Of a stretch of 64,000 bases of DNA, positions 1-64,000 are shown piece after piece (the first letter of the stretch is position 1; every line of letters starts with the position of its first letter). A program made the position numbers and the translations under genes. This DNA comes from Myxococcota bacterium (GTDB lineage Bacteria; Myxococcota_A; SURF-8; G963663525), in the NCBI GenBank assembly GCA_963676915.2, contig CAXXVK010000004.1:1-64000 (forward strand), read 5' to 3'. The notes beneath the pieces were generated by a model. That model was not told the origin of the DNA. It searched no databases and worked only from the letters and a program-made list of their open reading frames with translations.

Positions 1-52
1 GGAATTTCTTTTCGTCATCCACGAACAGCAAACGGATTTTCTTTTCCATCAT
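1..52 (-). CDS. Response regulator receiver protein, 5' end only (runs off left edge)
   Basis: Manual translation MMEKKIRLLFVDDEKKF gives receiver beta1 plus the acidic DDE pocket; GGAG RBS at 57-60; follows the REC-SLC13 gene. Confidence 0.75.
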   Translation of the reverse strand, partial: MMEKKIRLLFVDDEKKF

Positions 53-88
53 CGTTCTCCTGTCGATGTGCCCGAGCTGTCGGGCGTT

Positions 89-2116
89 CTACATGGCCGG
101 AAATCCCAGCCAGTTCCAATGAATGGCGATGGTCCACCCCCAGAGAACCATCAGTGATAGTAAGAAGATCGCCACTCCGTGCTTGGCGAAATCGCCCAGC
201 GTGATCAGCCGTTCGCCCGTCTCCGGATTTTCGGCGAGAGCGTAGACGATGGCATTGTTGGGAGTGCCGATAATCAGAATATGTGCGAATGAAGAGGCAA
301 AGGCCGTCGCAAGTCCGATCATCCACGGATGCGTGTCGGCCAGAACCGCCATAGGTACGGTAATGGGTCCGATGGCGGAGACGGTCGCGCCGTCGCTCAT
401 CAGATTGGTCATAACGGCGGTCATGGCGCTGGCCGCGATGGCCAGACCCGAGCCGGAACTCATCGATTCGGGCAAAATCGCCAAAAATCCCTTCGCAATG
501 TACAAAGCCGCGCCGGTCATCGCCAGCCCTTTACCCAGTGCCGTTGCGGCGGCATACAAGGCCACGACTTCCCAGTTGATATGCGTGATGTCTTTCCAGC
601 GAACGAGACGCATCAGCGACATCAGCAAAAGTCCCAACAAGACGGGACCGGCCATGCCGTACGTGCTGGACAGCGTGATCCAGCCCAGGATCACGATCCC
701 CAGCACGACCGCCATGAGGTATTCGTTGCGAACCATCGGTCCCAGTCGTTGCGATTCGGCTTTGACGATTCGGGCGATGTTCACATTTTTGACTTTTACT
801 TTGCGCGCAATCACAAGGTAAAAGTAAAGTCCAATGACCAACGCCATCACCGGGACGAAAGGCAGGCCGTACATGACCCACTCGCCATAGCTGGGCGCTA
901 CGCCGTAATCCTTGAGAATTCCGAGCATAATGGCGTTTCTGCCTCCGGCACTCGGGGAACCTGGTCCGCCGATATTGCCCGCCCAGGTGATGATCAACAG
1001 CAAGGTCAGCGCCAGGTATTTGTCGCTTTTGAGTCCGGCTGTTTTGATGGAGGCCATATAGACGACCAGCATAATCGGCGTGATAAAGGCCACGAGCGCA
1101 TGTTCCGAGATAAACGAGGCCGTAACGGAAAACAACGGTACGAAAATGAACAGAAAACGCCGCATGTTGCTGCTCAATCCAAGCAACAGGACTCCGATAC
1201 GCCGGTCCAGTCCGGTTTTGGCAATACCCACCGACATCGCCAGGACACCGAAGATAAACAATACCGAGTCTTTTAAAAACGATTTGGCGACGAGTTCCGG
1301 TGGCATGATCTGGAACCAGTACAGTACTACGGCGATGAGGATGGCGGTGAAACCTATGGGAATCGCTCCGGTTCCCCAGAAAAAGGCGGCGATGATCAGC
1401 AGGGCGATCATGATTTTTACTTTGAACGTCGCCGTTTCGGGCGAAAGTTTCTCACCTTTTTCCGAAAGCAGTTTGGCTTTTTTCGCATAAAAATCCTTGA
1501 TAGCTACCCCGACGGGCATTTCTTTGAACGAGGCATAGCCGCTGATCGGGTCGTCGATTGCGCCGGTTTTCGGTGTTGTCACGAGGTTTACAAGGGAATC
1601 CGGTGCGGGAAGAACCAGAACGAGGCCGAACAGCAAGAAGCCGATCAAAATGAACAGTGGCCGGTAGTTGGTCACACCAAGCATTTTGCGCCAGAAACCG
1701 GGCGAAGGATCGGCCAGTTTGTCGTGACGGGCCAGCAGGTTCACCCGGTCGCGCTTGGCCATCTCGATTTCGGAAAGAAGCTCTTCGAAGTCGAGGGTTT
1801 TCTCGTGAAAGGCGTAGGCGTCCAGGCGACCGATCTGCGTGGCCGACTGATAGGTGGCGTGTCCTGTGAGAACGATGACCTGGGTGGTCGGCTGCAACTC
1901 GTGGATCTCTTTGAGCGCTTCTTCACCGCTCATACCGGGCATTTTGAGATCCAACAGTACCACGTCATAGTCGTACAAACGCACCTGCCGGATAGCGTCT
2001 TCTCCCCGGTTGACCGTATGCACGCTCATACCGCGAAGCGTCAGACGCTGGGCAAGGTTTTCCGTCCATTTCACTTCGTCATCGACGATCAGAATATCCT
2101 TGTGATTTCCAGCCAT
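89..2116 (-). CDS. Receiver domain fused to SLC13/DASS (divalent anion:Na+ symporter) permease
   Basis: N-terminal ILIVDDE...VVLLDLKMPG...VLTGH...K; C-terminal multi-TM region with GGPGSPSAGGRN, TNLMSDGAT and IGTPNNAI DASS-type motifs. Confidence 0.85.
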   Translation of the reverse strand: MAGNHKDILIVDDEVKWTENLAQRLTLRGMSVHTVNRGEDAIRQVRLYDYDVVLLDLKMPGMSGEEALKEIHELQPTTQVIVLTGHATYQSATQIGRLDAYAFHEKTLDFEELLSEIEMAKRDRVNLLARHDKLADPSPGFWRKMLGVTNYRPLFILIGFLLFGLVLVLPAPDSLVNLVTTPKTGAIDDPISGYASFKEMPVGVAIKDFYAKKAKLLSEKGEKLSPETATFKVKIMIALLIIAAFFWGTGAIPIGFTAILIAVVLYWFQIMPPELVAKSFLKDSVLFIFGVLAMSVGIAKTGLDRRIGVLLLGLSSNMRRFLFIFVPLFSVTASFISEHALVAFITPIMLVVYMASIKTAGLKSDKYLALTLLLIITWAGNIGGPGSPSAGGRNAIMLGILKDYGVAPSYGEWVMYGLPFVPVMALVIGLYFYLVIARKVKVKNVNIARIVKAESQRLGPMVRNEYLMAVVLGIVILGWITLSSTYGMAGPVLLGLLLMSLMRLVRWKDITHINWEVVALYAAATALGKGLAMTGAALYIAKGFLAILPESMSSGSGLAIAASAMTAVMTNLMSDGATVSAIGPITVPMAVLADTHPWMIGLATAFASSFAHILIIGTPNNAIVYALAENPETGERLITLGDFAKHGVAIFLLSLMVLWGWTIAIHWNWLGFPAM

Positions 2117-44311: not shown

Positions 44312-44935
44312 TTACGGTTTTACAACGTGCCCGGCCTGGGTCAGAGAATCGAGGATCTCATACATGTTGGTGACTTTGCCAACCGCAAGTTGATCGATCA
44401 GGCCAAAGTAATCCAGGCAGGTACCACAGGAACGCAGCACAACACCTTGATTTTCAAGAGCTTTTAAACTTTCGAGCACCGGGGAGTCGGCGACCGTCAA
44501 CCGAACGCCCGCGTTGGCGAAAAGGATTTTCTGGGGCAATGGGCGCACGTCCTTTAGCGTGTTGACAAACGCTTTCATCAACGCCTGTCCCAACTCATCC
44601 GAGCCACTGCCCATACTGTCGGAAGAAATATATACCACATGCGGAGCCGCAGCCGCCGTAGGCTGAGGAATGCCGCAACGAGCCTCGGTGGTGATTTTCT
44701 CTTCGCCACGGGTAATGATCAACCGCTGCAAATCGCCTTCCGTTTCCTTGACCACGCTTCCGCCGTTTTCCTGGATGTAGCGTTCGACGTTCTCCGCACT
44801 CGTCGGATTGTTGACCAACGTCACCATTTGCTCGCCAACGGCGATTTCATCATAAACCTTTTTGGTCATGATCAACGGTACGGGGCAAGTTTTGTCCAAG
44901 GCGTTGACTTCAGGGATTTTTTTCGAATCGGTCAT
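44312..44935 (-). CDS. yedF: Sulfurtransferase-like selenium metabolism protein (TusA + DsrE-like domains)
   Basis: CPVP, MGSGSDELG..LMKAF, SCGTCLDYF, VGKVTNM; next to selA. Confidence 0.85.
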   Translation of the reverse strand: MTDSKKIPEVNALDKTCPVPLIMTKKVYDEIAVGEQMVTLVNNPTSAENVERYIQENGGSVVKETEGDLQRLIITRGEEKITTEARCGIPQPTAAAAPHVVYISSDSMGSGSDELGQALMKAFVNTLKDVRPLPQKILFANAGVRLTVADSPVLESLKALENQGVVLRSCGTCLDYFGLIDQLAVGKVTNMYEILDSLTQAGHVVKP

Positions 44936-45002: not shown

Positions 45003-46378
45003 TCAATGAGCCGTCTTTTCCACCCAAAGACGAACAGCCTCCGCAATATCCTTGAAATCCCTAGGAAAAACCGTCCTGAAATCCAGAACGAATCGGTCTT
45101 TCTGCACGAGTCCGACAATCGGTGTCGGGCGCTTCCTAAACCATCGGGCCGCTTTTTCGGCGGTTGCGGTCTTTAACACCAAACCGAAACTTTCGAGTTC
45201 GATATCCGGGGCACTGCCCGCCCCAACGGCGGAGAAGCACTCGACCGGCTCCAACCACGGTTTGCACGTTTCATACTCGTTGAGAAATAACCGTACCTTC
45301 TCTTCGATTTCAGCAGCGCTTTGGGTCAACATCTTAATGGACGGTAGTGACTGCGAAGTCGTATCCGCATGATATTTCAAGGCATTTTGCATCAAAAACA
45401 GCGTGGTTTTGTCCGGGCGCAGCACTCGCATCATCGGAGCTTTGGCAAGCTTCGAAATTTTCTCTTTTGTTCCCACGATAAAACCGGCTTGCGGACCACC
45501 GAAAAGCTTGTCTCCCGAACAACAAACGAGATCCGCGCCTTCTTCCACCGTTTTTTGCACGGAAGGCTCGTCGTGACCGGGCAGAGAAAAGTCTCCCATG
45601 TAACCCGATCCAAGATCTTTGACAATCATCACGTTCTCGTTTTTCAACGGCGCCAGGTCGCGAACCTCGACGCTTTTGGAAAACCCGCGAACTCGGAAAT
45701 TGGAATGATGCACTTTGAGCACCATCGCCGTATTTTCGTTGATGGCTCGCTTGTAGTCGTCGATTATAGTGATATTGGTGGTACCGACTTCTCGTAAAAT
45801 CGCACCCGTTGCTTCCAAAATATCGGGAATGCGAAATCCACCACCGATCTGCACCAGCTCCCCACGGGAAACGATGACTTCCTTCCCTTTGGCAAACGTG
45901 CTCAACACGAGAATACAACGCCGCAGCGTTGTTGTTGACCACCAACCCGGCCTCGGCACCACAAACCGACGCAAGCAGACGGTGCGTAAACAGCGACCGT
46001 GTACCGCGTTGCCTTCGGCCAAGTCGATTTCAAGGTTGGTATAGCCTTCAATCTCTTCCGAGAGTTTTTCCAGAGTTTTCGCTCCGTAAGGAGCGCGTCC
46101 CAGATTGGTATGGAGCACAACTCCCGTTCGCGTTGACAACCCGCTTCAAACGCGTGGAATCGAGATACTCGCACGCACGTCCGATCTCTTCGAGAATAGC
46201 GTCCGTATCCGGTTCGATCCCCTGATCCAACGCCTTTTTTCGCGCTTCGTCCACCGACTCGCGGCATAGTTCTTTGGCAAGAGCACGTCCCAACCGTTCC
46301 TCTGCATCGAGAAAAACGGCGAGAATGCATCAGAACATCCATTTTGGGTAGTTTGGCGAGCAACTTCTCGTTCGACAT
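45003..46378 (-). CDS. selA: L-seryl-tRNA(Sec) selenium transferase (frameshifted)
   Basis: TGVVLHTNLGRAP, VNNNAAA, SRGELVQIGGGFRIPD, EVGTTN, SGDKLFGGPQAG. Confidence 0.9.
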
Positions 46379-50206: not shown

Positions 50207-50242
50207 AAAAAAAGGGGCCGACGCTTTCGCATCGGCCCCTTT
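50207..50242 (-). terminator. Intrinsic terminator of the giant protein gene
   Basis: AAAGGGGCCGA...TCGGCCCCTTT with a U-run on the minus strand, 16 nt after the stop. Confidence 0.85.
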
Positions 50243-50258: not shown

Positions 50259-53200
50259 TTACATCGTATCGAAAGTGCGCGTCTCACTCGTGGTTTCGTT
50301 ACCTTCCGAGTCGATCGCAACAACCTTCCAATAGTAGGTCGTCTGTGCCTCCAGAGCCTCGGGAACCTGGTAGAGCACCACATCCTCCGGCAGGATGCCT
50401 TCTCCGCCTTCATCCGTCAGGTCTTCACAGGCGGTCATTCCACCGAGCACGACCATGCAACTCAGCACCATCGCGGCCATCGGTTTGCGACCGGTGCGAA
50501 CCAGCACGAACAGCAGTCCGAGAGCGAACGGCAGGGCGACCATGCCTTCGATCAGCTTCGTGGACTCTCCGCCCTCTTCCTGAGCATCTTCTTCGCTTCC
50601 AGCTACAACCACTGCATCACATCCACTAAAGGATTCGTTATTGCAGTAGTAGAGTTCGTAGCTCAGATCATCGCCTTCGGGATCGGTAGAACGTTTCCAC
50701 ATGAAGCTCATCATGGTCGGAATGCTGCTCTGGTCCGGACCCGGGTAGAGGAGTTCCGGAGCGGTCGGAGCCTGGTTCGGCTGATCGGTGCTGCCGGGAT
50801 CTTCCACACACAGATCGCTCAGGCAGACCAGACCTTCATCGCAGGTATCGTCGTTGTAACAATCACAACCTTCCGAACCGACGATGCATTCTTCCTCGTC
50901 CTGATCGCCATCGACTTCCGGTTCGCGGCAAATACCCTCGCGGCATTCCAACTCACCGTCACAGGTGTCGTCGCTGTAGCATTCGCAACCTTCCGAACCC
51001 GGGAGACAGGCTTCGCTCTCGGCAACCAACAGGCTGTAGTTGCCCGCTTCCTCGCCAAGCAAAACCACCTGAATGATGTACATTCCGCTCTCATCCACGG
51101 TGATGCCGTCCATCACCACATCGTCTCCGGCGTCGCCATGCTGGGCTACCGGTTCGGCACAGGCATTCGAAGCGCCGCATTCCGCCAGCAGAGCCACACC
51201 CAGAGAGCGGGAGCTATCGGTCAAGGTAATGACGTAAGCCTGACCCGCGTTCAACTGAATGCTGTAGAAGGCATCAGCCGCGTAGAGATCGGAAGAGGAG
51301 CAGGGATAGGACAACGCATGGTTGGCATGGCGTCCGTCAAGGCTGTCGTTGACGGCGTTGTCCAACGTGATCGGCGTCGCGCCTTCACAGAAATCGCCTT
51401 CTTCCAGTTCGACGCACTCGCCGCTCAGGCAGGCATGAGCATTGATCGCGCTGGAGTCGCAAACCGTCCAGTCATCCACCGGATCGTCCACGCAACCGCG
51501 TTCTTCATCGCAACTGTTGGCCATGCACTCGTTTCCATCGTCGCAATCCAGCGTACCGGTTCCGGCAAGACATTCACCCGCGCTGCACTGGTCGCCCGTG
51601 GTACAAGCGTTTCCATCGTCACAAGCGTTGGTGTCGTCGATGCTCCAAACCTCGCGGGAGGAAATCGGTGTGCATTCCTGACAAGGATTGTCCGGGTTGA
51701 CGGTTTCAGGCGCATAACAGAGACCGTTGATAATACAGACGTTGTACTGGTTGGTATTAGCCAGTGCGGGGCAATTGTCGCAAGCATCGCCAACTTCATC
51801 GTCGTCCGCATCTTCCTGATCGACGTTCGCAACCTTCGGGCAATTGTCTTCGTTGCCGCAGATACCGTCCACATCCATGTCGTTTTCAGGATCGAAGGGG
51901 CATACATCGCAGAGGTCGCCGAACTCGTCGTCGTCCGAATTGACCTGCTCGGTGTTGCTGGCCAGCGGGCAATTGTCGTTGGTGTCGAACACGCCGTCTC
52001 CGTCGTCGTCCACGTCGCAGACATCGCCTTCGCCGTCAAGGTCCGTATCGAGCTGGTCGAAGTTGGCTACGAGTTCGCAGTTGTCTTCGACATCGAGCAT
52101 TCCGTCGTCGTCGTCGTCGTCGTCGCAGACATCGCCCGCACCGTCGAGATCCGTATCTTCCTGACCGGTGTTCTCGGTGAGCGGGCAGTTGTCGTAGCGG
52201 TCGAACACGCCGTCGTTGTCGTCGTCGTCGTCACAGACATCGCCTTCGCCATCCAGGTCGGCATCTTCCTGCTCGGGGTTGATCGTCAGCCAGCAGTTGT
52301 CCTCGGCATCGGTCACACCGTCTTCGTCGGCATCGTCTTCGCAGGCGTCGCCGCGTCCATCGTTGTCCGTATCAACCTGATCGAAGTTCGGAGTCCGGCG
52401 ACAGTTGTCGAAGCTGTCCAACACACCGTCGTTGTCATCGTCGTTGTCACAGGCATCGCCCCATTGATCGTCATCGGCGTTGTACTGCTCGGGGTTGTAG
52501 GTCAACGTACAGTTGTCGTTCTCATCATCGATACCATCGGCGTCGTCGTCCGAATCGCAGGCATTACCCATCAGGTCACCATCCGTATCGGTTTGATCCG
52601 GGTTGTAAACGGTCGGGCAGTTGTCATTGATCGCCACGACACCGTCACCATCGGAGTCGGCATCGCAGGCATCGCCCATGCCGTCTTCATCCGCATCGAG
52701 CTGATCGGCATTGGCAACGAGCGGGCAGTTGTCGTCGATGTCCAGAACCTCATCGGCATCGTCGTCGTCGTCGCAAGCATCGCCAAGAGCGTCCTCATCG
52801 GTATTCGTCTGATCGTCGTTGGCGACCATCGGGCAGTTATCCTCACCATCGAGAACGTCATCGTTGTCGTCATCGTCGTCGCAGATATCACCCATGTCAT
52901 CGTTGTCATTGTCAGCCTGATCCGGGTTGAAGACGACCGGGCAGTTATCCTCTTCGTCGAGCACGCCATCTTCGTCGAGATCGTCCTCGCAGGCATCGCC
53001 CTGGCCATCTTCGTCCGTATCCGTCTGATCGTCGTTGAACGTCAACGGGCAGTTGTCATCGATGTCGTCCACACCATCGTTGTCGTCGTCGGTGTCGCAG
53101 ACATCGCCTTCGTCATCCTCGTCGGTGTTGAACTGGTCGGTGTTGGCCACGAGCGGACAGTTGTCATTCGCGTCCGGAATCCAGTCGCCATCGTCGTCGT

Positions 53201-56200
53201 CGTCACAGACATCGCCTTCGCCATCCTCGTCGGTATCGAGTTGGTCAGCATTGGCCAGAAGCGGACAGTTGTCCTCAACATCCAGTTTGCCGTCGCCATC
53301 GTCGTCGGTGTCGCAGGCATCGCCTTCTCCGTTGTCGTCGAGGTCGGACTGCGTATCGTTTGCAACCATCGGGCAGTTGTCCGTCTCATCCGCGATGCCG
53401 TCGTTGTCGTCGTCATCGTCGCAGATATCGCCGAACGCATCGCCGTCCAGGTTGGCCTGATTCGTATTGACAACCAACGGACAGTTATCCAACTCGTCGT
53501 AGATACCATCGGCGTCGTCATCCGCATCACAGGCATCGCCTTCGCCGTCTTCATCGGTATCGAGCTGATCGGTGTTGATCACCAACGGGCAGTTGTCATC
53601 GCCGTCGAGCACGCCGTCTTCATCGTCGTCGTCCTCGCAGGCATCACCCTGGCCGTTATCATCCGAGTCGGCTTGATCGGCGTTCGGAGTGCGCGGACAG
53701 TTATCCGTTTCATCCAGCACGCCATCGTTGTCATCGTCGTAGTCACAGGCATCACCCAGGCTGTCGTCGTCGGCGTTGAGCTGATTCGTGTTGGCGAGAA
53801 TCGGGCAATTGTCGTTCTCGTCGAGCACGCCGTCGTTGTCGTCATCCGTGTCACACAGATCACCCAAGCCGTCGTTCTCGTTGTCAGCCTGCTCGGGGTT
53901 GATCACGGTCGGGCAATTGTCCTCGGCATCGGCCAGACCATCGTTGTCGTCATCGTCGTCACAGGCATCGCCCATCGCGTCGGTGTCGCTGTTGGTCTGC
54001 TCTGCGTTGGCTACGAGCGGACAGTTGTCGGATTCGTCGAGGATGTAATCGCCGTCGTCGTCGTCGTCGCAGGCATCGCCTTCACCATCCGAGTCGGTAT
54101 CGGTAAGGTCGGCATTCGCCAACAGCGGGCAATTATCGATGGTGTCGTCTACGCCGTCGCCATCGTCATCCATATCGCAGGCATCACCCATGTTGTCGTT
54201 GTCAAAGTCCGCCTGATCGTCATTAGCAACGAGCGGGCAGTTATCGACGAGGTCGTCTACGCCGTCCGCATCGTCATCCGAATCGCAGGCATCGCCTTCG
54301 CCATCCTCATCGACATCCACCTGATCGGCATTGGAAACCAGGATGCAGTTGTCGGATTCGTCGGCTACGCCGTCGTTGTCGTCGTCCGCATCGCAGGCAT
54401 TTCCTTCGCCATCCGCGTCGGTATCCGCCTGACCCATGTTTTCAACGAGGCGACAGTTGTCGAAAGCGTCGTACACGCCATCGTTGTCGTCGTCCATATC
54501 GCAGGCGTCGCCCATCTCGTCGTCGTCCGTATTCACCTGTTCAGGGTTGTAGACCAACGGGCAATTGTCTTCTTCCTCGGAAACACCGTCTTCATCGTTG
54601 TCATCCTGACAGGCATCGCCTCGTCCATCCTCGTTGGTATCGAGCTGGTCGGTGTTCACCGTCTTCGGACAATTGTCGACGTCATCGTACACGCCGTCGT
54701 TGTCGTCGTCAGCGTCACAGGCATCGCCGTCGCCGTCCTCATCGACATCCACCTGATCGGTATTGGCCACGAGCGGACAATTGTCGACGCCGTCCATGAA
54801 GCCGTCCGCATCGTCGTCGTAATCGCAGACATTACCTTGACCGTCCACGTCGGTATCGACCTGATCGGTATTGGCTACGAGCGGGCAATTGTCCATTTCG
54901 TCGGGCACGTAATCGCCATCGTCGTCCGCGTCGCAGACATCGCCTTCACCGTCCATGTCGGTATCCGTCTGATCGGCGTTGGCGATCATCGGGCAATTGT
55001 CTTCGACATCCGCCACACCATCCTCGTCGGTGTCGTTTTCGCAGGCATCGCCAATGCCGTCGCGGTCGGTGTCGAGCTGATCGGCGTTGGAAGTGAAGTG
55101 GCAGTTATCTTCGCCGTCGTTCACACCATCGTTGTCATCGTCGTCATCGCAGACATCGCCCAGGTTATCGTTGTCGTTGTCCGCTTGATCTTCGTTGGCA
55201 ATCAACGGGCAGTTATCTTCGACATCCGCCACACCGTCCTGATCGAGATCGTCCTCGCAGGCATCGCCGATACCATCCAGATCGGTATCGAGCTGACCAT
55301 CGTTGAACGTCACCGGGCAGTTGTCGACGATATCGTCCACACCGTCGTTGTCATCGTCCGCGTCGCAGACATCGCCTTCGCCGTCACCTTCGTTGTCCGC
55401 CTGGTCGCTATTGGGAACCAGCGGGCAGTTGTCATTGGTGTCCGGCACGCCATCCTGATCGGCGTCGTCTTCGCAGGCATCGCCGATGCCGTCGTCGTCC
55501 GTATCCGCCTGATCCTCGTTGGCAATGAAGACACAGTTGTCGGTTTCGTCGTCCACACCGTCATTGTCATCGTCATCGTCACAGACATCGCCCGCACCAT
55601 CGTTGTCCCGGTCGGACTGATCGGTGTTGGCCGTCATCGGACAATTATCGACGGAATCCGGCAGGTAGTCGTTGTCGTCGTCCGTGTCACAGGCATCGCC
55701 CAGGTCATCCTCGTCGTTGTTTTCCTGTTCGGCGTTCGGCACCATGGGACAATTGTCTTCATTGTCGGCGAGTTCGTCGTTGTCATCGTCGTCGTCGCAG
55801 ACATCGCCCACCGTATCACCATCGTTATTGGCTTGATCCGGGTTCGCATTCATCGGGCAATTGTCGAACAGGTCGTTGATGCCGTCGTTGTCGTCATCGG
55901 CATCACAGACATCGCCGAACTTATCGAGGTCGTTGTTTTCCTGTTCGGCATTTTCGATCAACGGACAGTTATCCTCGACATCATCGACTCCGTCTCCGTC
56001 GTCATCCGTGTCGCAGGCATCACCTTCGTCGTCTTCATCGGTATCGACCTGATCCGGGTTGATGGCTTCAGGGCAGTTGTCCTCTTCGTCCACCACGCCG
56101 TCCTGATCGGTGTCATCTTCGCATGCATCGCCGATGCCGTCTTCGTCCGTGTCGGTCTGATCGTCGTTGGCGATTCGGATACAGTTGTCGGTTTCGTCCA

Positions 56201-59200
56201 ACACGCCATCACCATCGTCGTCGTCGTCGCAGGCGTCGCCTTCACCGTTTTCGTCGGCATCGAACTGCTCGGCGTTTTCGATCAGCGGGCAGTTGTCGGA
56301 TTCATCGTCGACACCGTCGTTGTCGTCGTCCGTGTCACAGGCATCGCCTTCGCCGTCGTCGTCGTTGTCCGCCTGATCATCGTTGGCCACGAACACGCAG
56401 TTGTCGGCTTCATCGTCGACACCGTCGTTGTCGTCGTCGTCGTCGCAGACATCGCCTTCACCGTCATTGTCCTCATCGAACTGTTCGTGGTTTTGGACGA
56501 ACTGGCAGTTATCGACGGTATCCGGCACGAAGTCGTTGTCGTCATCCGTGTCACAGGCATCGCCTTCAGCGTCTTCGTCATTGTTCGCCTGATCATCGTT
56601 GGCCGTCCAGACGCAATTGTCGGTTTCGTCAGCAACGCCGTCGTTGTCGTCGTCGTCGTCGCAGAGATCGCCGAACTCGTCGTCGTCGTTGTTGGCCTGT
56701 CCGGGGTTGAACAGCTGCGGGCAGTTGTCTTCGGCATCCGCCACACCGTCCTTGTCGTCGTCATCCTCGCAGGCATCACCGATACCGTTGTCGTCATAGT
56801 CCGCCTGATCATCGTTTGCGGTCAGCGGGCAGTTGTCAGATTCGTCGGCCACACCATCATTGTCGTCATCGTCGTCGCAGGCGTTACCGAACTCGTCATT
56901 ATCTGTATTGATCTGATCGGTATTGGCCAGCGTCGGGCAATTGTCAACATTGTCGAGGATGCCGTCACCATCGTTGTCGTCCTCGCAGGCGTCGCCGATG
57001 CCGTCGTCATCCGTATCGACCTGATCGACGTTCTCGGTCAACGGGCAATTGTCGTAGGCATCGAACACGCCGTCACCGTCGTCGTCGTCGTCACAGGCGT
57101 TTCCTTCGCCATCCTCATCGGTGTCCGTCTGGTCGGGGTTAATGTTCTCAACACAGTTGTCAACGTCGTCTGCCACACCGTCTTCGTCAGCATCGTTTTC
57201 GCAGGCATCGCCGATACCATCGTTGTCCTCATCGGCCTGATCGTCGTTGGCAGTTCTCGGACAATTGTCTTCAACATCGTCCACGCCGTCGTTGTCGTCG
57301 TCGTCGTCACAGGCATCGCCCAGACCATCGTGGTCGGCATCGAACTGTCCGGGATTGGCCGTCTGCGGGCAGTTGTCCTCAAGGTCTGAACTTCCGTCGT
57401 TGTCGTCATCCGCATCGCAGACATCGCCTTGACTGTCGCCGTCGAGGTTTCTCTGACTTGCGTTGGCTGTCATCGGACAGTTGTCGAGAACATCCTGCAC
57501 GCCGTCGTTGTCGTCGTCGTCGTCACAGACATCACCCTCGCCGTCTTCGTCATTGTCCGCCTGATCGGGGTTGATGTCCTGAGGACAATTGTCTTCCGCA
57601 TCCGTCACGCCGTCCTCGTCGTCATCGTTCTCACAGGCATCACCCTGGCCGTCATTATCGGTATCCGACTGATCGGCATTGACGGTCAGCGGGCAATTGT
57701 CGAACAGGTCGAGCACGCCGTCGTTGTCATCGTCCGTATCGCAGGCATCGCCTTCACCATCGTCTTCGCTGTCCTGCTGATCGGCGTTGGCCACGAAGGG
57801 GCAGTTGTCATTGATGTCCGGCACGCCGTCTTCGTCCGCGTCATCCTCGCAGGCATCGCCCACACCATCGTTATCGGTATCGACCTGCTCGAAGTTCGAG
57901 GTCTTGGGACAGTTATCGTAACCGTCAAGAATTCCGTCCGCATCGTCGTCCGCATCGCAGACATCGCCTTCACCGTCGTCGTCCGTATCTTCCTGCATGT
58001 CGTTGAAGGCCATCGGACAGTTATCGTAGGTATCCACGATTCCGTCGTTGTCGTCGTCATCGTCGCAGACATCACCTATATTGTCATTATCGTTGTCCAA
58101 CTGACCCGTATTGGAAATGAGCGGACAGTTATCGAAGGTGTCTTTCACTCCGTCCGAATCGTCATCCACGTCGCAAGCATCACCGTCGCCATCATCGTCA
58201 GTATCGAGCTGGTCGCCGTTGGCGTCCATCGGGCAGTTGTCGAACTCGTTGGCCACGCCGTCACCATCCATATCGTCATCGCAGGCATCGCCGAATTCAT
58301 CGTCGTCGTGGTTGGCCTGTTGCGTGTTGAATGTCAGCGGGCAGTTGTCGAAATCGTCGAGGACGCCGTCACCATCATCGTCGTCGTCGCAAGCATTGCC
58401 TTCGCCATCGTGATTGGTGTCGATCTGGTCCGGGTTGACGACCACGGGGCAGTTATCCTCGCCGTCGAGCACGCCGTCCTCATCGTTGTCGTTTTCGCAG
58501 GCATCACCCACGCCGTCATCATCGGTATCAATCTGATCGCCGTTGGCCGTACGCGGGCAATTGTCCATTTCGTCGAGGACTTCGTCATTGTCGTCGTCGT
58601 CGTCGCAGGCATCGCCGAAAGCATCGTTGTCGGCATTCAACTGAGCCGTATTGGCTTCGAACTCACAGTTGTCAACCGTGTCGAGAACGCCGTCATTGTC
58701 GTCGTCATCGTCACAGGCATCGCCTTCACCGTCTTCGTCGTTGTCGTCCTGCACAACGTTGGGAACGAGCGGGCAGTTGTCGAGCACGTCGGGCAGCAGA
58801 TCGCCATCGTCATCCTCGTCACAAGCATCGCCTTCGCCATCCTCGTTCGTATCGAGTTGTCCGACGTTGCGAATCAACGGGCAATTGTCGACTTCGTCGA
58901 GCGTACCGTCGTTATCGTCGTCCACGTCGCAGGCATCGCCGTCACCATCCTCGTCGGTATCCAATTGATCGGTATTGTCATTCACCGGGCAATTGTCTTC
59001 GCCGTCCAGGATCGTGTCACCATCGTCGTCGTCGTCGCAGGCATTACCTTCGCCGTCTTCGTCGGTATCAAGCTGGTCGGCATTGGACACCGAAGGACAG
59101 TTGTCTTCGTAGTCCGGCACGCCGTCGCTGTCGTCGTCTTCTTCACAGGCATCACCCACGCCGTCGTTGTCCGTATCGTATTGATCGGCATTGGCGAGGT

Positions 59201-62200
59201 TGGGACAATTGTCCTCTACGTCGTCTACGCCGTCACCATCGTCATCCGTGTCACAGGCATCGCCTTCGCCGTCTTCGTCGAGGTCTTCCTGATTCGGATT
59301 CATCACGTTGACGCAGTTGTCGGCTTCGTCGAGAACACCGTCTTCGTCAATATCATTGTCACAGGCGTCGCCGTAGCCATCTTCGTCCGTGTCGGCCTGA
59401 TCCTCGTTCGGAGTGCGCGGGCAGTTGTCGTTTTCGTCAAGCACGGTGTCGTTGTCATCGTCATCGTCGCAAGCATCGCCGAATTCGTCGTCGTCCGCGT
59501 TGTACTGTTCGACGTTGGACACCAGCGGGCAGTTGTCAACAAGGTCGAGAACCTGGTCCGCGTCGTCATCGACATCGCAGACATCGCCTTCGCCGTCCTC
59601 GTCGGTATCCTTCTGCTCCACGTTGGCCATGGTCGGGCAGTTGTCTACGTCATCGGGGATGAAGTCGTTGTCATCATCCGTGTCGCAGGCATCGCCTTGA
59701 GTGTCTTCGTCTTCGTTCGCCTGATCCTCATTGGCCACGAGCGGACAGTTGTCCTCGCCATCTTCCACACCGTCGTTGTCGTCATCGCGGTCACAGGCGT
59801 TTCCTTCACCATCCTCGTCGGTGTCATCCTGTGCGGCATTGGCTACCAGGCGGCAGTTATCAACAGTGTCGGGGATGAAGTCGTTGTCGTCGTCCGTGTC
59901 ACAGGCGTCGCCTTCACCATCGGTGTCGGTGTCGAGCTGATCGTCATTGGAAGCCAACGGACAATTATCCTCACCGTCGTCAACTCCATCGCCATCGTCG
60001 TCCGCGTCGCAAGCGTTACCTTCGTTATCCAGATCCTGGTCGGCCTGATCGGCATTGGAAATCAGCGGACAGTTGTCCTCGACATCATCCACACCGTCGT
60101 TGTCGTCATCCGCGTCACAGGCATCGCCTTGACCGTCGGTGTCCAAGTCACTTTGCGTGTCATTGGAAATCAGCGGGCAATTGTCGTCAACGTCATCGAC
60201 ACCGTCGGCGTCGTCATCGTTATCGCAGGCATCGCCCCAGTCATCCTCGTCCGTATCAAGCTGATCCGCATTCGAGGTGAACGGGCAGTTATCGAAGCCA
60301 TCTTCCGCACCATCGTTGTCGTCGTCGTCGTCACAGACATCGCCGAAGCCATCCAGATCGTTGTTTTCCTGTCCGGAGTTCTCAACGAGCGGGCAGTTGT
60401 CGGAAGCGTCGAACACACCGTCGTTGTCGTCATCCGCATCGCAGGCGTCGCCTTCACCATCCTCGTCCGTGTCGAGCTGATCGTCGTTGACCACCAGCGG
60501 GCAATTGTCGGCGCCATCGAGCACGCCGTCTTCGTCGGCGTCGTCCTCACAGGCATCGCCAATGCCGTCATGATCGGTGTCGGCCTGATCGAAGTTGGCG
60601 ATACGGGTGCAGTTGTCGAAGTTGTCGAGAATACCGTCGTTGTCGTCGTCTTCGTCGCAAGCATCGCCGAAGCTGTCGCCATCTGCGTTGAGTTGCTCGG
60701 GATTGGTCACGTAAGGACAGTTATCCTCACCCTGGTCGTAGCCGTCGCCATCCAGATCCGAATCGCAGGCATTGCCCAGACCGTCGTCATCCATATCCAC
60801 CTGATCGCTGTTGGCATCGAGCGGGCAATTGTCCTCACCATCCGGGACCGTATCACCATCGTCGTCATCGTCACAGATGTTACCTTCGCCATCACCATCC
60901 GTATCGAGCTGTTCCACGTTTTCGACGAACGGACAGTTGTCGATATCATCGTTCACACCATCGTTGTCGTCGTCCACGTCGCAAACATCGCCTTCGTCAT
61001 CGTCGTCGAAGTCTTCCTGTCCTGCGTTCTTATCGAACGGGCAGTTATCGGCGGTATCCAGCAATCCGTCGTTGTCGTCGTCCGCGTCGCAGGCATCACC
61101 CACACCATCCTCGTCGTTGTCGCTCTGATCGGGGTTGTCCACGTTGGGGCAGTTGTCCGAAATGTCCGGAACACCGTCCTCGTCGTCGTCATCTTCGCAG
61201 GCATCACCGATTCCGTCTTCATCCGTATCGAGCTGCGTGAAGTTCGCAGTACGCGGGCAGTTGTCGAAGTTATCCAAAATGCCGTCGTTATCGTCGTCCA
61301 CGTCGCAAGCATCACCATCTTCGTCATCGTCCGAGTTCACCTGGTTGGTGTTTTGCACGAGCGGACAGTTGTCGGCAGCGTCCATCACGAGGTCGTTGTC
61401 ATCGTCCGTATCGCAGGCATCGCCTTCACCATCCTCGTCCGTATCATCCTGCGAAGTATTCGCCACGAGCGGGCAGTTGTCGGCGCCATCCGGGATGAAG
61501 TCGCCGTCGTCGTCTGCGTCGCAGGCATCGCCTTCGCCATCCTCGTCCGTATCCGTCTGAGCCGTATTCGCGTGCTCGGGGCAGTTGTCGCCACCGTCCG
61601 GAATACCGTCCTCGTCATCATCGTCTTCGCAGAGATTACCCTGACCATCGTTGTCGGTATCCAACTGGTCGGCATTTTCTACGAGCGGGCAGTTATCGAA
61701 GATATCCAACACGCCATCGTCGTCGTCGTCGGTATCGCAGGCATCGCCTTGGCCATCGTCATCCGTATCGAGCTGATCGTCATTGACCGTGTGCGGACAA
61801 TTGTCATCTTCGTCGAGCACGCCGTCTTCATCGTCGTCGTTTTCGCAAGCATCGCCGGTGCCGTCGTCATCCGAATCGACCTGATCGAAGTTCGAAGTGC
61901 GCGGACAGTTATCGGAAACATCCAAAATACCGTCGTTGTCGTCGTCGTTATCGCAGGCGTCGCCCAACTCATCGTTATCCGCATTGAGCTGATCTTCGTT
62001 GGCCACGTTCGGGCAGTTGTCTTCCGCATCGAGAACACCATCGTTGTCGATGTCGAAATCGCAGGCATCGCCCTGACCGTCGTCGTCCGAATCCGCCTGA
62101 TCGTTGTTGTTCACGAACGGGCAGTTGTCGAAGCCATCCGGGATTCCGTCGTTATCGTCGTCGGTATCGCAGGCATCACCCAACTCGTCGCCGTCGTTGT

Positions 62201-64000
62201 TGGCCTGATCGTTGTTCCAGGTGAGCGGGCAGTTGTCGCCGGCATCCAGAATCATGTCGTCGTCATCGTCAACGTCACAGGCATCGCCGTAATCATCCGA
62301 GTCCGTATTCGTCTGATCGGTATTGACCGTCAACACGCAGTTATCGAAAGTATCCGGGATTCCGTCGCCATCATCGTCAGTGTCACAAGCGTTACCTTCG
62401 CCGTCCTGGTTGGTATCGATCTGATCGGTATTGACCGTCAGCTTGCAGTTGTCCGAAACGTCCGGGATAAAGTCGTTATCGTCATCGTCGTCGCAAACGT
62501 TACCGTCACCATCGTCATCCGTATCGAGCTGATCGGCGTTTTTGTTCAACGGACAGTTGTCACCGGCATCCAACACACCATCGTTGTCGTCATCGGTGTC
62601 GCAGGCGTTTCCGTCGCCATCTTCATCCGTATCGAACTGGTTGGTGTTGTAGATCATGGGACAGTTGTCGGCATAGTCGGGAATGAAGTCGTTGTCGTCG
62701 TCGGTATCGCAGGCGTCGCCCTGTCCATCGTTGTCGGTATCCACCTGATCCGGGTTACTCAGTTCGGGGCAGTTATCACCGGCATCCAACACACCGTCGT
62801 TGTCGCTGTCATCGTCACAGACATCGCCGTCACCATCGTTGTCGAGGTCGGCCTGATCGGTGTTGAAGTCGAGGGGACAGTTATCCTCACCGTCGGGGAT
62901 GAAGTCGTTGTCATCGTCCGGGTCACAGGCATCGCCCAGGGTGTCGGAATCGGTATCGAGCTGATCGACATTGGCCATCAGCGAGCAGTTGTCCGCCCAG
63001 TCGAGAACGCCGTCCGAGTCGTCGTCGTCATCGCAAGCATCGCCAAGACCATTGACGTTGAAGTCTTTCTGATCTCCGTTGGCTACCAGCGGGCAGTTGT
63101 CGGCGTCGTCGAACACGTAGTCGTTGTCGTCGTCCGGATCGCAGGCATCACCAATGCCGTCGTTCTCTGTATCCGTCTGATCGGTGTTGGCAATTTTCGG
63201 GCAGTTATCGAGGATATCGACGACGTCGTCGTTGTCGTCGTCGTCGTCGCAGACATCGCCCATGCCATCGTCATCAGAGTCCGTTTGCTCGGGATTCTGG
63301 TGATAGGGGCAGTTGTCCTCGGCATCCCCGATGCCGTCTTCGTCATCATCGTCCTCGCAGGCATCGCCTTTGTAGTCGTTGTCGGAGTCCGTCTGGCTCG
63401 GGTTCGGGGTGTAGGGACAGTTATCGTTGGTATCCACTACACCGTCGTTGTCATCGTCCAGGTCGCAGACGTCGCCCTGTCCGTCACCCTCGTAGTCGAG
63501 CTGATCGACGTTGGCCATGGAGGGGCAGTTGTCGCAGATGTCACCCAGGCCGTCTTCGTCGATGTCGTACTGAGTATTATTGTAATTGTACGGGCAGTTA
63601 TCGTAAGCATCGAGGATCGTATCGTCATCGTCGTCGGTGTCGCAGGCATCGCCCTGACCATCGTCATCGAAATCGAGCTGGTCGACGTTCTGAACCGTCG
63701 GGCAGTTGTCGCTAATATCCAAAAGTCCGTCGTTGTCGTCATCATCGTCACAAGTATTACCGATACCATCTTTATCGGCATCGGCCTGCGAGGGGTTACC
63801 AGCCACCGGACAGTTATCGCAAACATCACCCACGCCATCGTTGTCGGTGTCGGTCTGGTTAAAGGCATTCGCCACCGTGGGGCAATTGTCGCTGCCGTTG
63901 GGGATACCATCATCGTCGGCATCCGGGTCGCAGGCATCGCCAGCACCATCAGAGTCACTGTCCGTCTGATCAACGTTTGTTGTATTCACACAGTTATCGC
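50259..64000 (-). CDS. Giant thrombospondin type-3 repeat surface protein (>4570 aa, 5' end outside window)
   Basis: Frame stays open to the window edge (...DNCVNTTN...); about 110 DxDxDGxxDxxDNCP...NxDQxDxDxDGxGDACD units; Cys-rich, PPC-like and Fn3-like C-terminal domains. Confidence 0.92.
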   Translation of the reverse strand, partial: DNCVNTTNVDQTDSDSDGAGDACDPDADDDGIPNGSDNCPTVANAFNQTDTDNDGVGDVCDNCPVAGNPSQADADKDGIGNTCDDDDDNDGLLDISDNCPTVQNVDQLDFDDDGQGDACDTDDDDDTILDAYDNCPYNYNNTQYDIDEDGLGDICDNCPSMANVDQLDYEGDGQGDVCDLDDDNDGVVDTNDNCPYTPNPSQTDSDNDYKGDACEDDDDEDGIGDAEDNCPYHQNPEQTDSDDDGMGDVCDDDDDNDDVVDILDNCPKIANTDQTDTENDGIGDACDPDDDNDYVFDDADNCPLVANGDQKDFNVNGLGDACDDDDDSDGVLDWADNCSLMANVDQLDTDSDTLGDACDPDDDNDFIPDGEDNCPLDFNTDQADLDNDGDGDVCDDDSDNDGVLDAGDNCPELSNPDQVDTDNDGQGDACDTDDDNDFIPDYADNCPMIYNTNQFDTDEDGDGNACDTDDDNDGVLDAGDNCPLNKNADQLDTDDDGDGNVCDDDDDNDFIPDVSDNCKLTVNTDQIDTNQDGEGNACDTDDDGDGIPDTFDNCVLTVNTDQTNTDSDDYGDACDVDDDDDMILDAGDNCPLTWNNDQANNDGDELGDACDTDDDNDGIPDGFDNCPFVNNNDQADSDDDGQGDACDFDIDNDGVLDAEDNCPNVANEDQLNADNDELGDACDNDDDNDGILDVSDNCPRTSNFDQVDSDDDGTGDACENDDDEDGVLDEDDNCPHTVNDDQLDTDDDGQGDACDTDDDDDGVLDIFDNCPLVENADQLDTDNDGQGNLCEDDDDEDGIPDGGDNCPEHANTAQTDTDEDGEGDACDADDDGDFIPDGADNCPLVANTSQDDTDEDGEGDACDTDDDNDLVMDAADNCPLVQNTNQVNSDDDEDGDACDVDDDNDGILDNFDNCPRTANFTQLDTDEDGIGDACEDDDDEDGVPDISDNCPNVDNPDQSDNDEDGVGDACDADDDNDGLLDTADNCPFDKNAGQEDFDDDDEGDVCDVDDDNDGVNDDIDNCPFVENVEQLDTDGDGEGNICDDDDDGDTVPDGEDNCPLDANSDQVDMDDDGLGNACDSDLDGDGYDQGEDNCPYVTNPEQLNADGDSFGDACDEDDDNDGILDNFDNCTRIANFDQADTDHDGIGDACEDDADEDGVLDGADNCPLVVNDDQLDTDEDGEGDACDADDDNDGVFDASDNCPLVENSGQENNDLDGFGDVCDDDDDNDGAEDGFDNCPFTSNADQLDTDEDDWGDACDNDDDADGVDDVDDNCPLISNDTQSDLDTDGQGDACDADDDNDGVDDVEDNCPLISNADQADQDLDNEGNACDADDDGDGVDDGEDNCPLASNDDQLDTDTDGEGDACDTDDDNDFIPDTVDNCRLVANAAQDDTDEDGEGNACDRDDDNDGVEDGEDNCPLVANEDQANEDEDTQGDACDTDDDNDFIPDDVDNCPTMANVEQKDTDEDGEGDVCDVDDDADQVLDLVDNCPLVSNVEQYNADDDEFGDACDDDDDNDTVLDENDNCPRTPNEDQADTDEDGYGDACDNDIDEDGVLDEADNCVNVMNPNQEDLDEDGEGDACDTDDDGDGVDDVEDNCPNLANADQYDTDNDGVGDACEEDDDSDGVPDYEDNCPSVSNADQLDTDEDGEGNACDDDDDGDTILDGEDNCPVNDNTDQLDTDEDGDGDACDVDDDNDGTLDEVDNCPLIRNVGQLDTNEDGEGDACDEDDDGDLLPDVLDNCPLVPNVVQDDNDEDGEGDACDDDDDNDGVLDTVDNCEFEANTAQLNADNDAFGDACDDDDDNDEVLDEMDNCPRTANGDQIDTDDDGVGDACENDNDEDGVLDGEDNCPVVVNPDQIDTNHDGEGNACDDDDDGDGVLDDFDNCPLTFNTQQANHDDDEFGDACDDDMDGDGVANEFDNCPMDANGDQLDTDDDGDGDACDVDDDSDGVKDTFDNCPLISNTGQLDNDNDNIGDVCDDDDDNDGIVDTYDNCPMAFNDMQEDTDDDGEGDVCDADDDADGILDGYDNCPKTSNFEQVDTDNDGVGDACEDDADEDGVPDINDNCPFVANADQQDSEDDGEGDACDTDDDNDGVLDLFDNCPLTVNADQSDTDNDGQGDACENDDDEDGVTDAEDNCPQDINPDQADNDEDGEGDVCDDDDDNDGVQDVLDNCPMTANASQRNLDGDSQGDVCDADDDNDGSSDLEDNCPQTANPGQFDADHDGLGDACDDDDDNDGVDDVEDNCPRTANDDQADEDNDGIGDACENDADEDGVADDVDNCVENINPDQTDTDEDGEGNACDDDDDGDGVFDAYDNCPLTENVDQVDTDDDGIGDACEDDNDGDGILDNVDNCPTLANTDQINTDNDEFGNACDDDDDNDGVADESDNCPLTANDDQADYDDNGIGDACEDDDDKDGVADAEDNCPQLFNPGQANNDDDEFGDLCDDDDDNDGVADETDNCVWTANDDQANNDEDAEGDACDTDDDNDFVPDTVDNCQFVQNHEQFDEDNDGEGDVCDDDDDNDGVDDEADNCVFVANDDQADNDDDGEGDACDTDDDNDGVDDESDNCPLIENAEQFDADENGEGDACDDDDDGDGVLDETDNCIRIANDDQTDTDEDGIGDACEDDTDQDGVVDEEDNCPEAINPDQVDTDEDDEGDACDTDDDGDGVDDVEDNCPLIENAEQENNDLDKFGDVCDADDDNDGINDLFDNCPMNANPDQANNDGDTVGDVCDDDDDNDELADNEDNCPMVPNAEQENNDEDDLGDACDTDDDNDYLPDSVDNCPMTANTDQSDRDNDGAGDVCDDDDDNDGVDDETDNCVFIANEDQADTDDDGIGDACEDDADQDGVPDTNDNCPLVPNSDQADNEGDGEGDVCDADDDNDGVDDIVDNCPVTFNDGQLDTDLDGIGDACEDDLDQDGVADVEDNCPLIANEDQADNDNDNLGDVCDDDDDNDGVNDGEDNCHFTSNADQLDTDRDGIGDACENDTDEDGVADVEDNCPMIANADQTDTDMDGEGDVCDADDDGDYVPDEMDNCPLVANTDQVDTDVDGQGNVCDYDDDADGFMDGVDNCPLVANTDQVDVDEDGDGDACDADDDNDGVYDDVDNCPKTVNTDQLDTNEDGRGDACQDDNDEDGVSEEEDNCPLVYNPEQVNTDDDEMGDACDMDDDNDGVYDAFDNCRLVENMGQADTDADGEGNACDADDDNDGVADESDNCILVSNADQVDVDEDGEGDACDSDDDADGVDDLVDNCPLVANDDQADFDNDNMGDACDMDDDGDGVDDTIDNCPLLANADLTDTDSDGEGDACDDDDDGDYILDESDNCPLVANAEQTNSDTDAMGDACDDDDDNDGLADAEDNCPTVINPEQADNENDGLGDLCDTDDDNDGVLDENDNCPILANTNQLNADDDSLGDACDYDDDNDGVLDETDNCPRTPNADQADSDDNGQGDACEDDDDEDGVLDGDDNCPLVINTDQLDTDEDGEGDACDADDDADGIYDELDNCPLVVNTNQANLDGDAFGDICDDDDDNDGIADETDNCPMVANDTQSDLDDNGEGDACDTDDDGDGKLDVEDNCPLLANADQLDTDEDGEGDVCDDDDDGDWIPDANDNCPLVANTDQFNTDEDDEGDVCDTDDDNDGVDDIDDNCPLTFNDDQTDTDEDGQGDACEDDLDEDGVLDEEDNCPVVFNPDQADNDNDDMGDICDDDDDNDDVLDGEDNCPMVANDDQTNTDEDALGDACDDDDDADEVLDIDDNCPLVANADQLDADEDGMGDACDADSDGDGVVAINDNCPTVYNPDQTDTDGDLMGNACDSDDDADGIDDENDNCTLTYNPEQYNADDDQWGDACDNDDDNDGVLDSFDNCRRTPNFDQVDTDNDGRGDACEDDADEDGVTDAEDNCWLTINPEQEDADLDGEGDVCDDDDDNDGVFDRYDNCPLTENTGQEDTDLDGAGDVCDDDDDDDGMLDVEDNCELVANFDQLDTDLDGEGDVCDVDDDGDGVFDTNDNCPLASNTEQVNSDDDEFGDLCDVCPFDPENDMDVDGICGNEDNCPKVANVDQEDADDDEVGDACDNCPALANTNQYNVCIINGLCYAPETVNPDNPCQECTPISSREVWSIDDTNACDDGNACTTGDQCSAGECLAGTGTLDCDDGNECMANSCDEERGCVDDPVDDWTVCDSSAINAHACLSGECVELEEGDFCEGATPITLDNAVNDSLDGRHANHALSYPCSSSDLYAADAFYSIQLNAGQAYVITLTDSSRSLGVALLAECGASNACAEPVAQHGDAGDDVVMDGITVDESGMYIIQVVLLGEEAGNYSLLVAESEACLPGSEGCECYSDDTCDGELECREGICREPEVDGDQDEEECIVGSEGCDCYNDDTCDEGLVCLSDLCVEDPGSTDQPNQAPTAPELLYPGPDQSSIPTMMSFMWKRSTDPEGDDLSYELYYCNNESFSGCDAVVVAGSEEDAQEEGGESTKLIEGMVALPFALGLLFVLVRTGRKPMAAMVLSCMVVLGGMTACEDLTDEGGEGILPEDVVLYQVPEALEAQTTYYWKVVAIDSEGNETTSETRTFDTM
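51760..64000 (-). repeat. Degenerate coding tandem repeat, unit about 108 bp / 36 aa
   Basis: Recurrent GGGCAGTTGTC and GCAGGCATCGCC motifs at about 108-bp spacing on the + strand. Confidence 0.9.

Follow-up and report, generated by a model that had tools for sequence, protein, structure and literature searches.

To our knowledge, C-terminal anchoring of bacterial proteins needs a dedicated sorting enzyme, such as a sortase, an exosortase, a rhombosortase, or a myxosortase. Lgt and LspA have been described for signals at the N-terminus. A related family in NCBIfam release 20.0 is NF058595.1 (invert_tail), the ‘lipo-invert putative C-terminal anchoring domain’, with a cut-off of 37 bits. We analyzed a stretch of 64,000 nucleotides from a Myxococcota bacterium (assembly GCA_963676915.2, contig CAXXVK010000004.1, positions 1 to 64,000; hereafter the window), whose minus strand encodes the 3′ part of a giant protein with a body of thrombospondin type 3 (TSP3) repeats. 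Here we describe the last 173 residues of this protein (the tail), in which a predicted Fn3-like sandwich is split by two hydrophobic helices (transmembrane helices TM1 and TM2), a basic loop between them, and a Cys directly after TM2. This module is real and conserved, and it probably serves as a C-terminal anchor. Our best reading is that the tail is a new Fn3-embedded variant of the NF058595-type putative anchor, with NF058595 taken by its model name and member sequences.

Two other systems show how a fold may be shared between chains. In chaperone-usher pili, an incomplete Ig-like fold is completed by the strand of another chain (donor-strand complementation). In GAIN and SEA domains, the large extracellular part is held non-covalently to the membrane-bound part after cleavage. 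Folds, organisms, and proteases differ from those of the module, and the likeness is mechanistic only. Classical lipoprotein signal peptides, which are handled by Lgt, LspA, and Lnt, share with the module a basic n-region, a hydrophobic h-region of ~17 residues, S/A/G at position −1, and an invariant Cys. They differ from it in location: the module’s signal is internal, behind a putative stop-transfer helix, and in the window only 55 residues remain between it and the C-terminus, in a frame of ~5,180 amino acids (aa).

The available text of two reports describes MYXO-CTERM, GlyGly-CTERM, and PEP-CTERM signals as a motif, a helix, and a basic cluster that are cut by a dedicated enzyme, namely myxosortase, rhombosortase, and exosortase (PMC11980579, PMC6219818). 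The module resembles these tripartite signals in its putative role, C-terminal anchoring of exported proteins, and other lineages have such signals on homologous passenger domains. However, tripartite signals end the protein and need their dedicated enzyme, whereas the module’s helix precedes a lipoprotein-type signal and half a domain. In the window, 73 residues follow the helix and basic cluster, so the tail falls outside the tripartite class. The PEP-CTERM, MYXO-CTERM, and GlyGly-CTERM models of NCBIfam did not match the window tail and did not recur among 62 homologues. No dedicated enzyme for the module was evident.

We numbered the tail on the minus-strand translation of window positions 50259-52058, with residue 1 at 50778-50780; all tail features are on the minus strand. 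The first half of the Fn3-like sandwich spans residues 1-60 (50601..50780) and comprises strands A, B, C, and C′, as placed by AlphaFold2 (AF2) and by alignment to unsplit Fn3 repeats. It is followed in the translation by an acidic linker (residues 61-78; 50547..50600) and by TM1, a hydrophobic stretch of 16 residues (79-94; 50499..50546) at a place that is also hydrophobic in 38 homologues. A six-residue basic loop with three Arg/Lys (95-100; 50481..50498) leads into TM2, or h-region, which ends in M-T-A (101-117; 50430..50480). We infer that the loop is cytoplasmic and serves as the n-region of an internal lipoprotein-type signal. The lipobox Cys118 has the codon TGT (50427..50429). After it come an acidic/Gly linker (119-133; 50382..50426), which is Gly/Ser-rich in homologues, and the second half of the sandwich, with strands E, F, and G (134-173; 50262..50381; AF2 and a partial Pfam fn3 match). 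Each element that the earlier note had listed for this tail (the two halves, the linker, TM1, the loop, TM2 with M-T-A-Cys, and the tether) was present in the translation.

This layout was unique in the genome. Among the 4,038 open frames that reach 250 aa and have a stop, a single one ends in a transmembrane helix, a basic loop, a second transmembrane helix, Cys preceded by G, A, or S, and a tail of 20-120 residues. When the tail was searched against the proteins of the genome, no second full copy was returned. Because the layout was found once among these frames and recurs in >100 proteins elsewhere, we regard it as more than chance. TM2 of the window also contains a second Cys, itself lipobox-like with V-L-S before it (residues 105-108; 50457-50468), which is kept in the same-genus orthologue. 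The alignment showed that, of the two, the later (50427-50429) is the Cys that is invariant in the family.

We observed that this Cys was invariant in three tail alignments (39/39, 62/62, and 117/117), in favor of the earlier note, whose reading required that homologues conserve it. Each of the 39 tails in the first alignment, including that of the window, has TM1 and TM2 with a basic loop between them and the Cys. For the lipobox, we used 139 tails selected with a loose rule; a few false picks are among them (e.g., P0031). Position −1 was S in 111 tails, A in 23, and G in 3 (S/A/G in 137/139), and position −3 was L in 83, F in 20, V in 12, I in 8, and M in 5. Position −2 was mainly V, I, T, A, or S, and position +2 was Gly in 112/139. 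The ten residues before the h-region held a median of 4 Arg/Lys, and the last basic residue stood at a median distance of 17 from the Cys, similar to 18 in the window. The window tail itself has three basic residues, Ala at −1, the Cys at +1, and an uncharged h-region inside the 7-22 residues expected of a lipoprotein signal. Judging from these sequence features, TM2 resembles a lipoprotein-type signal and not a plain helix.

The acidic residues at +2 and +3 of the window tail are unlike the family. We compared them with 354 candidate N-terminal lipoprotein signals collected from this genome by a regular expression; the search pattern shapes positions −3 to −1 of this set and leaves +2 and +3 free. 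D or E was present at +2 in 70 candidates and at +3 in 106, and the acidic positions of the window tail thus appear to fit the host’s own lipoprotein-like signals. An L-T-A box was found in seven of the candidates and an M-T-A box in one.

Genes for LspA, Lnt, and LolA are present in the genome, together with four Lgt-like genes. The four Lgt-like genes exceed the Pfam cut-off (C21:5011-5736, C33:30967-31776, C62:3663-4514, and C31:60655-61362, at 213, 173, 157, and 104 bits, respectively). Five other module-bearing genomes have one or two Lgt-like genes each. We considered an Lgt paralogue dedicated to the module and dropped this candidate, as two module-bearing genomes have a single Lgt-like gene.

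To describe the fold, we modeled the tail with AF2 (15-row alignment). The predicted local distance difference test score (pLDDT) was 91-97 for residues 1-60, 92-97 for residues 131-173, and 45-56 for the insert, including the acidic linker. The model placed strands at residues 9-12, 25-29, 40-46, and 57-60 in the first half and at 134-138, 148-156, 162-164, and 168-172 in the second, in Fn3 order. In a Foldseek search with this model, all top rows were Fn3 or PKD domains whose alignments span the insert (best E 3.8e-3, probability 1.00, TM-score by target ≤0.72). The two halves also aligned to the two ends of unsplit Fn3 repeats (four repeats of one library protein), with ~75 residues inserted between C′ and E. 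A Cys pair at residues 46 and 54, after strand C, is kept in 94 and 93 of 117 tails and is absent from the four unsplit repeats compared; it may form a disulfide. Pfam fn3 (PF00041) scored 17.3 bits against a cut-off of 25 and covered only profile positions 54-82 of 84. In the ESM Atlas, only generic Fn3 clusters were found (scores ≤0.82). As the earlier note had suggested, the two halves are predicted to form one Fn3-like sandwich; the split falls in the C′-E loop.

We also modeled the halves as two separate chains (residues 1-62 and 118-173). The pair scored 0.53 compared to 0.00 for the best control, with at least 97% of contacts in agreement between runs and a partner pLDDT of at least 69. 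In calibration, the mark was reached by 58/80 solved complexes and 2/110 mismatched pairs; passing scores of ≤0.60 were seen for only 7 of the 80 solved complexes and for both mismatches that passed. The result supports pairing weakly. This pass may stem from likeness to solved Fn3 structures, the halves being of a common fold.

The same layout was found on unrelated passenger proteins. An exhaustive HMMER search with the tail returned 2,139 proteins at E ≤ 1e-3. Among the best 150 listed, 38 proteins of 160-1,047 aa matched tail residues ~2-172 at their own extreme C-terminus, 36 of them in one stretch. Most of the 150 were multi-repeat proteins that matched residues 2-50 and 136-172 separately, i.e., ordinary unsplit Fn3 repeats. 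A word-based search with a consensus-like member returned 149 proteins at E ≤ 1e-5, and most of the 120 listed covered at least 90% of the 180-aa module. Passenger domains included S8 peptidase, matrixin, FG-GAP, delta-60, NHL, PKD, and choice-of-anchor D. Among the matches listed, source names, where present, were mostly ‘hypothetical’. In a crude signal test, 70/94 full-length-looking homologues passed. By their NCBIfam names, passenger relatives from other lineages have MYXO-CTERM or PEP-CTERM anchors, which supports the anchor role.

Genome records with the full module were mostly metagenome-assembled genomes (MAGs) of Nitrospirota/Thermodesulfovibrionia. The full module was also present in MAGs of Geobacteraceae, Desulfuromonadaceae, Gammaproteobacteria, SAR324, and Spirochaetales, and one module protein is from Beggiatoa alba. 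Five genomes held 3, 5, 1, about 5 intact, and 1 copies. We found 21 matches in 10 of 151 sampled genomes of one phylum, a count that may be too low, as at most 16 candidates were scored per genome. Copies in such numbers are typical of a sorting tag, not of a single gene. Three module genes stand in tandem within ~6 kb at G004:C43:15768-21881, and two more are ~2.5 kb apart on C18. Among 30 other relatives searched around the window’s genome, the module was present in one, from the same genus. Its orthologue is a 5,214-codon frame with a tail 80% identical to that of the window and an L-T-A-C lipobox, and the frame runs uninterrupted through the cassette, as in the window.

The earlier note knew of no named sorting signal with this layout. 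This claim stood in part. NF058595 is named, and its model matched 11 of 13 homologues (15.6-30.3 bits) and, in a larger set, 54 of 62 homologues at E ≤ 0.01 (best E 1e-8). However, all scores seen for Fn3-type tails were below the 37-bit cut-off (35.2 at best in genome searches), and the window tail was unmatched. Ordinary lipoprotein signals also drew low-score matches to NF058595, in each of the 14 control genomes, and one match just over the cut-off (37.9 bits) was a plain N-terminal lipoprotein.

We examined a member of NF058595 above the cut-off (66.2 bits), identical to a ‘hypothetical’ protein of Candidatus Nitrospira nitrificans. It consists of an Ig-like domain and a helix, then a basic loop and a second helix that ends in a lipobox Cys; from there, a Gly/Pro-rich linker leads to the last β-hairpin. 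Its relatives in Nitrospira and Acidobacteria carry the tail on HAF-repeat, S8, and FG-GAP passengers. The window tail shares with these members an extreme C-terminal position, a transmembrane helix, a basic loop, a signal with an invariant Cys, a Gly-rich linker, the last strands of a sandwich, and, as a family, diverse exported passengers. The host domain is different: the members have an Ig-like domain of an Acidobacteria/Nitrospira type with two strands after the Cys, whereas the window type is Fn3, with three. An AF2 model of an NF058595-type member placed helices at 108-129 and 134-150 and two strands after the Cys at pLDDT 93-96. This model could be superposed on solved Ig-like domains as one sandwich over the range 25..200 (Z 12.8, root-mean-square deviation 2.1 Å, 102 residues). 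hhalign aligned the Fn3 type to the NF058595 type with probability 94.8 (E 5e-8) over 94 columns centered on the cassette; this likeness may be in part compositional. The features of a lipoprotein signal recur in the Ig-type family. The same cassette thus splits a second, different sandwich, an independent second case.

On balance, we lean toward the reading that the tail is a conserved C-terminal membrane-anchoring module with a lipoprotein-type signal, on which Lgt and LspA make a lipidated peptide that completes the sandwich. An N-terminal Sec signal would export the passenger. TM1 would act as a stop-transfer helix (N-out/C-in) and halt transfer, and TM2 would re-insert N-in/C-out, so that the last 55 residues are exported. 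Lgt would then add diacylglycerol to Cys118 and LspA would cut before it; we propose that both act on TM2 because the lipobox is conserved. The lipidated peptide would give strands E, F, and G to the passenger’s four strands, and the passenger would gain a C-terminal lipid anchor through a two-chain sandwich. From sequence, we infer lipidation, cleavage by LspA, fragments that stay together, the final compartment, and any later removal of TM1.

Several points weigh against this proposal. The topology (TM1 N-out, loop inside, TM2 C-out) would follow from the N-terminal signal and the positive-inside rule applied to the basic loop. Action of Lgt and LspA ~5,100 residues into a chain is assumed. 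After cleavage by LspA, the passenger would still be covalently joined to the TM1-loop-TM2 hairpin, a point on which the earlier note was silent; the lipid peptide would therefore be redundant as an anchor unless TM1 is removed. Either the passenger stays in the inner membrane with the lipid as an extra tie, or TM1 is removed. The window tail itself is atypical, with Met at −3 of the lipobox, a minority form (5/139 tails), and a TM1 that lacks the family’s aromatic-Ala-Gly motif. Neither NF058595 nor any other NCBIfam model matched it at E ≤ 1, no Pfam model reached its cut-off on it, and no Foldseek row for its model reached E ≤ 1e-3. The 48 open reading frames (ORFs) flanking 17 module genes included no conserved neighbor that would point to a pathway.

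The literature was also silent: we found no publication or experiment on the Fn3-type family or on NF058595. The papers listed make no mention of an internal lipoprotein signal, an internal lipobox or signal peptidase II site, or a second lipobox. Papers retrieved for ‘C-terminal lipobox’ were set aside, since the text available from them looks like ordinary N-terminal signal-peptide work. A 2023 myxosortase preprint does not contain ‘lipoprotein signal’, ‘Lgt’, or ‘invert’. For Fn3 fragment complementation, only indirect papers were found. Overall, what the earlier note observed in this tail is confirmed, and its interpretation is partly supported.

A possible, though doubtful, alternative is that two cuts excise the hairpin. 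LspA would cut at the Cys and a second membrane protease at the periplasmic edge of TM1. The hairpin would then be discarded, and the passenger, held non-covalently on the lipid anchor, could be sorted to the outer membrane or surface. TM1 is conserved beyond the need of a plain anchor, with an internal Gly in 103/117 tails and an aromatic-Ala-Gly motif just before it (Ala in 98/117, Gly in 95/117). However, this conservation could instead reflect packing of TM1 against TM2, and the window’s own TM1 is one of those without the motif. In Escherichia coli, the +2 residue decides Lol export, and Gly permits it. The Gly at +2 of the module (112/139 tails) would allow such export, and LolA is present in this genome. 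Relatives of the passengers elsewhere are surface proteins with C-terminal sorting signals, and the motif, helix, and basic cluster of the module together have the tripartite layout given for such signals in the available text of PMC11980579 and PMC6219818. No candidate for the second protease was found, and none of the 48 ORFs around the 17 module genes is a conserved neighbor. Rhomboids are present, but they occur in all 14 control genomes as well and are therefore uninformative. In its widest form, which we hold only tentatively, diderms of several phyla would anchor exported proteins C-terminally with no more than the common machinery for N-terminal lipoproteins, and the hairpin would be excised by LspA at the Cys and by a second protease at the conserved motif that precedes TM1. 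The product would be a two-chain tether, with a lipidated peptide of two or three strands, that could be sorted to the outer membrane or surface and separated by force, and that would have arisen in at least two sandwich folds.

It is less probable, and in our view unlikely, that the hairpin stays uncleaved. The two helices would then tie the sandwich and passenger to the inner membrane, with the Cys used otherwise or lipidated without cleavage. A two-helix hairpin would suffice as an anchor, and LspA cleavage is deduced rather than directly evidenced. The NF058595 matches on ordinary signals of the 14 control genomes also indicate that the likeness between cassettes is partly compositional. 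However, an uncleaved anchor needs no invariant Cys, no S/A/G at −1 (137/139 tails), and no L/F/V/I at −3 (123/139). Nor does it call for an h-region as long as that of a lipoprotein signal, or for the Gly/Ser-rich residues that follow the Cys. The same features are found in the Ig-type family too.

We consider it very improbable that the tail is an artefact or a separate gene (a giant gene fused or frameshifted with a small lipoprotein gene, or a lipoprotein nested behind an internal start): some MAG copies are frameshifted within A-rich basic-loop codons, and the window’s loop has a basic stretch followed by Met, but neither the window nor the same-genus orthologue has a break in the frame, the layout is uninterrupted in >100 independent proteins, the positions ahead of the basic loop show no conserved start residue, and both halves belong to a single fold. 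Two specific candidates were examined and rejected. For an internal translation start, the tail alignments had no conserved residue, and the three candidates for a two-gene version (passenger to TM1 plus a separate lipoprotein) were broken copies, none of them a natural split. Frameshifts lie in or just after the basic-loop codons at G004:C18:46545-47136 and at G081:C214 (L123, around 2100-2520), where these codons are A-rich; the two frameshifts suggest sequencing errors or decay. A module copy at G004:C10:27634-28202 is broken by in-frame TGA stops.

The giant protein occupies 50262..64000 on the minus strand of the window in the ORF list, with its 5′ end beyond the window. In the genome contig (C4), its frame is open for 5,182 codons, of which the window holds only the 3′ part, and its N-terminus is basic and then hydrophobic, like a signal peptide. 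Pfam TSP_3 matched 103 stretches of the body. The repeats resemble MtsC, and NCBIfam names such relatives MYXO-CTERM or PEP-CTERM proteins; we also saw a weak partial match of the repeats to the NCBIfam model for an Omp28-related selenoprotein. The stop codon, from the ORF list and translation, is at 50259..50261 (minus strand). Seventeen bases after it, a hairpin scan showed a terminator-like hairpin with a 14-pair stem and a T run (50211..50242, minus strand); one such site equals the shuffle mean, and only its stem length and position are notable. Opposite the giant gene, two long frames are open on the plus strand (51138-57389, 2,083 aa; 57429-63998, 2,190 aa). The simplest view is that both are shadow frames of the TSP3 coding sequence, which is repetitive and rich in Asp. 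Neighbors of the giant gene in the window are deacetylase-like, histidine kinase, and SelA-like genes, none of them conserved at other module loci. Downstream are the SelA-like gene (45003-46139, minus strand) and a TusA-domain gene (44312-44935, minus strand). At one other locus (L014:2889-3932, in a Thermodesulfovibrionia MAG), a type II secretion protein C-like gene is directly downstream of the module gene; it was not seen at the 16 other loci covered.

NCBI curators had already named the sister family, and the Fn3 form described here is not captured by the NF058595 model. The passengers of the module are proteases, adhesin-like giants, and repeat proteins, from Nitrospirota, Desulfuromonadales-type and gammaproteobacterial MAGs, SAR324, and others. 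Recognizing the module would improve localization calls for proteins that are mostly named hypothetical. If the proposed mechanism is true, the module would achieve C-terminal anchoring by the housekeeping enzymes Lgt and LspA together with fragment complementation of a small domain, and it would also be a natural design for C-terminal lipid display.

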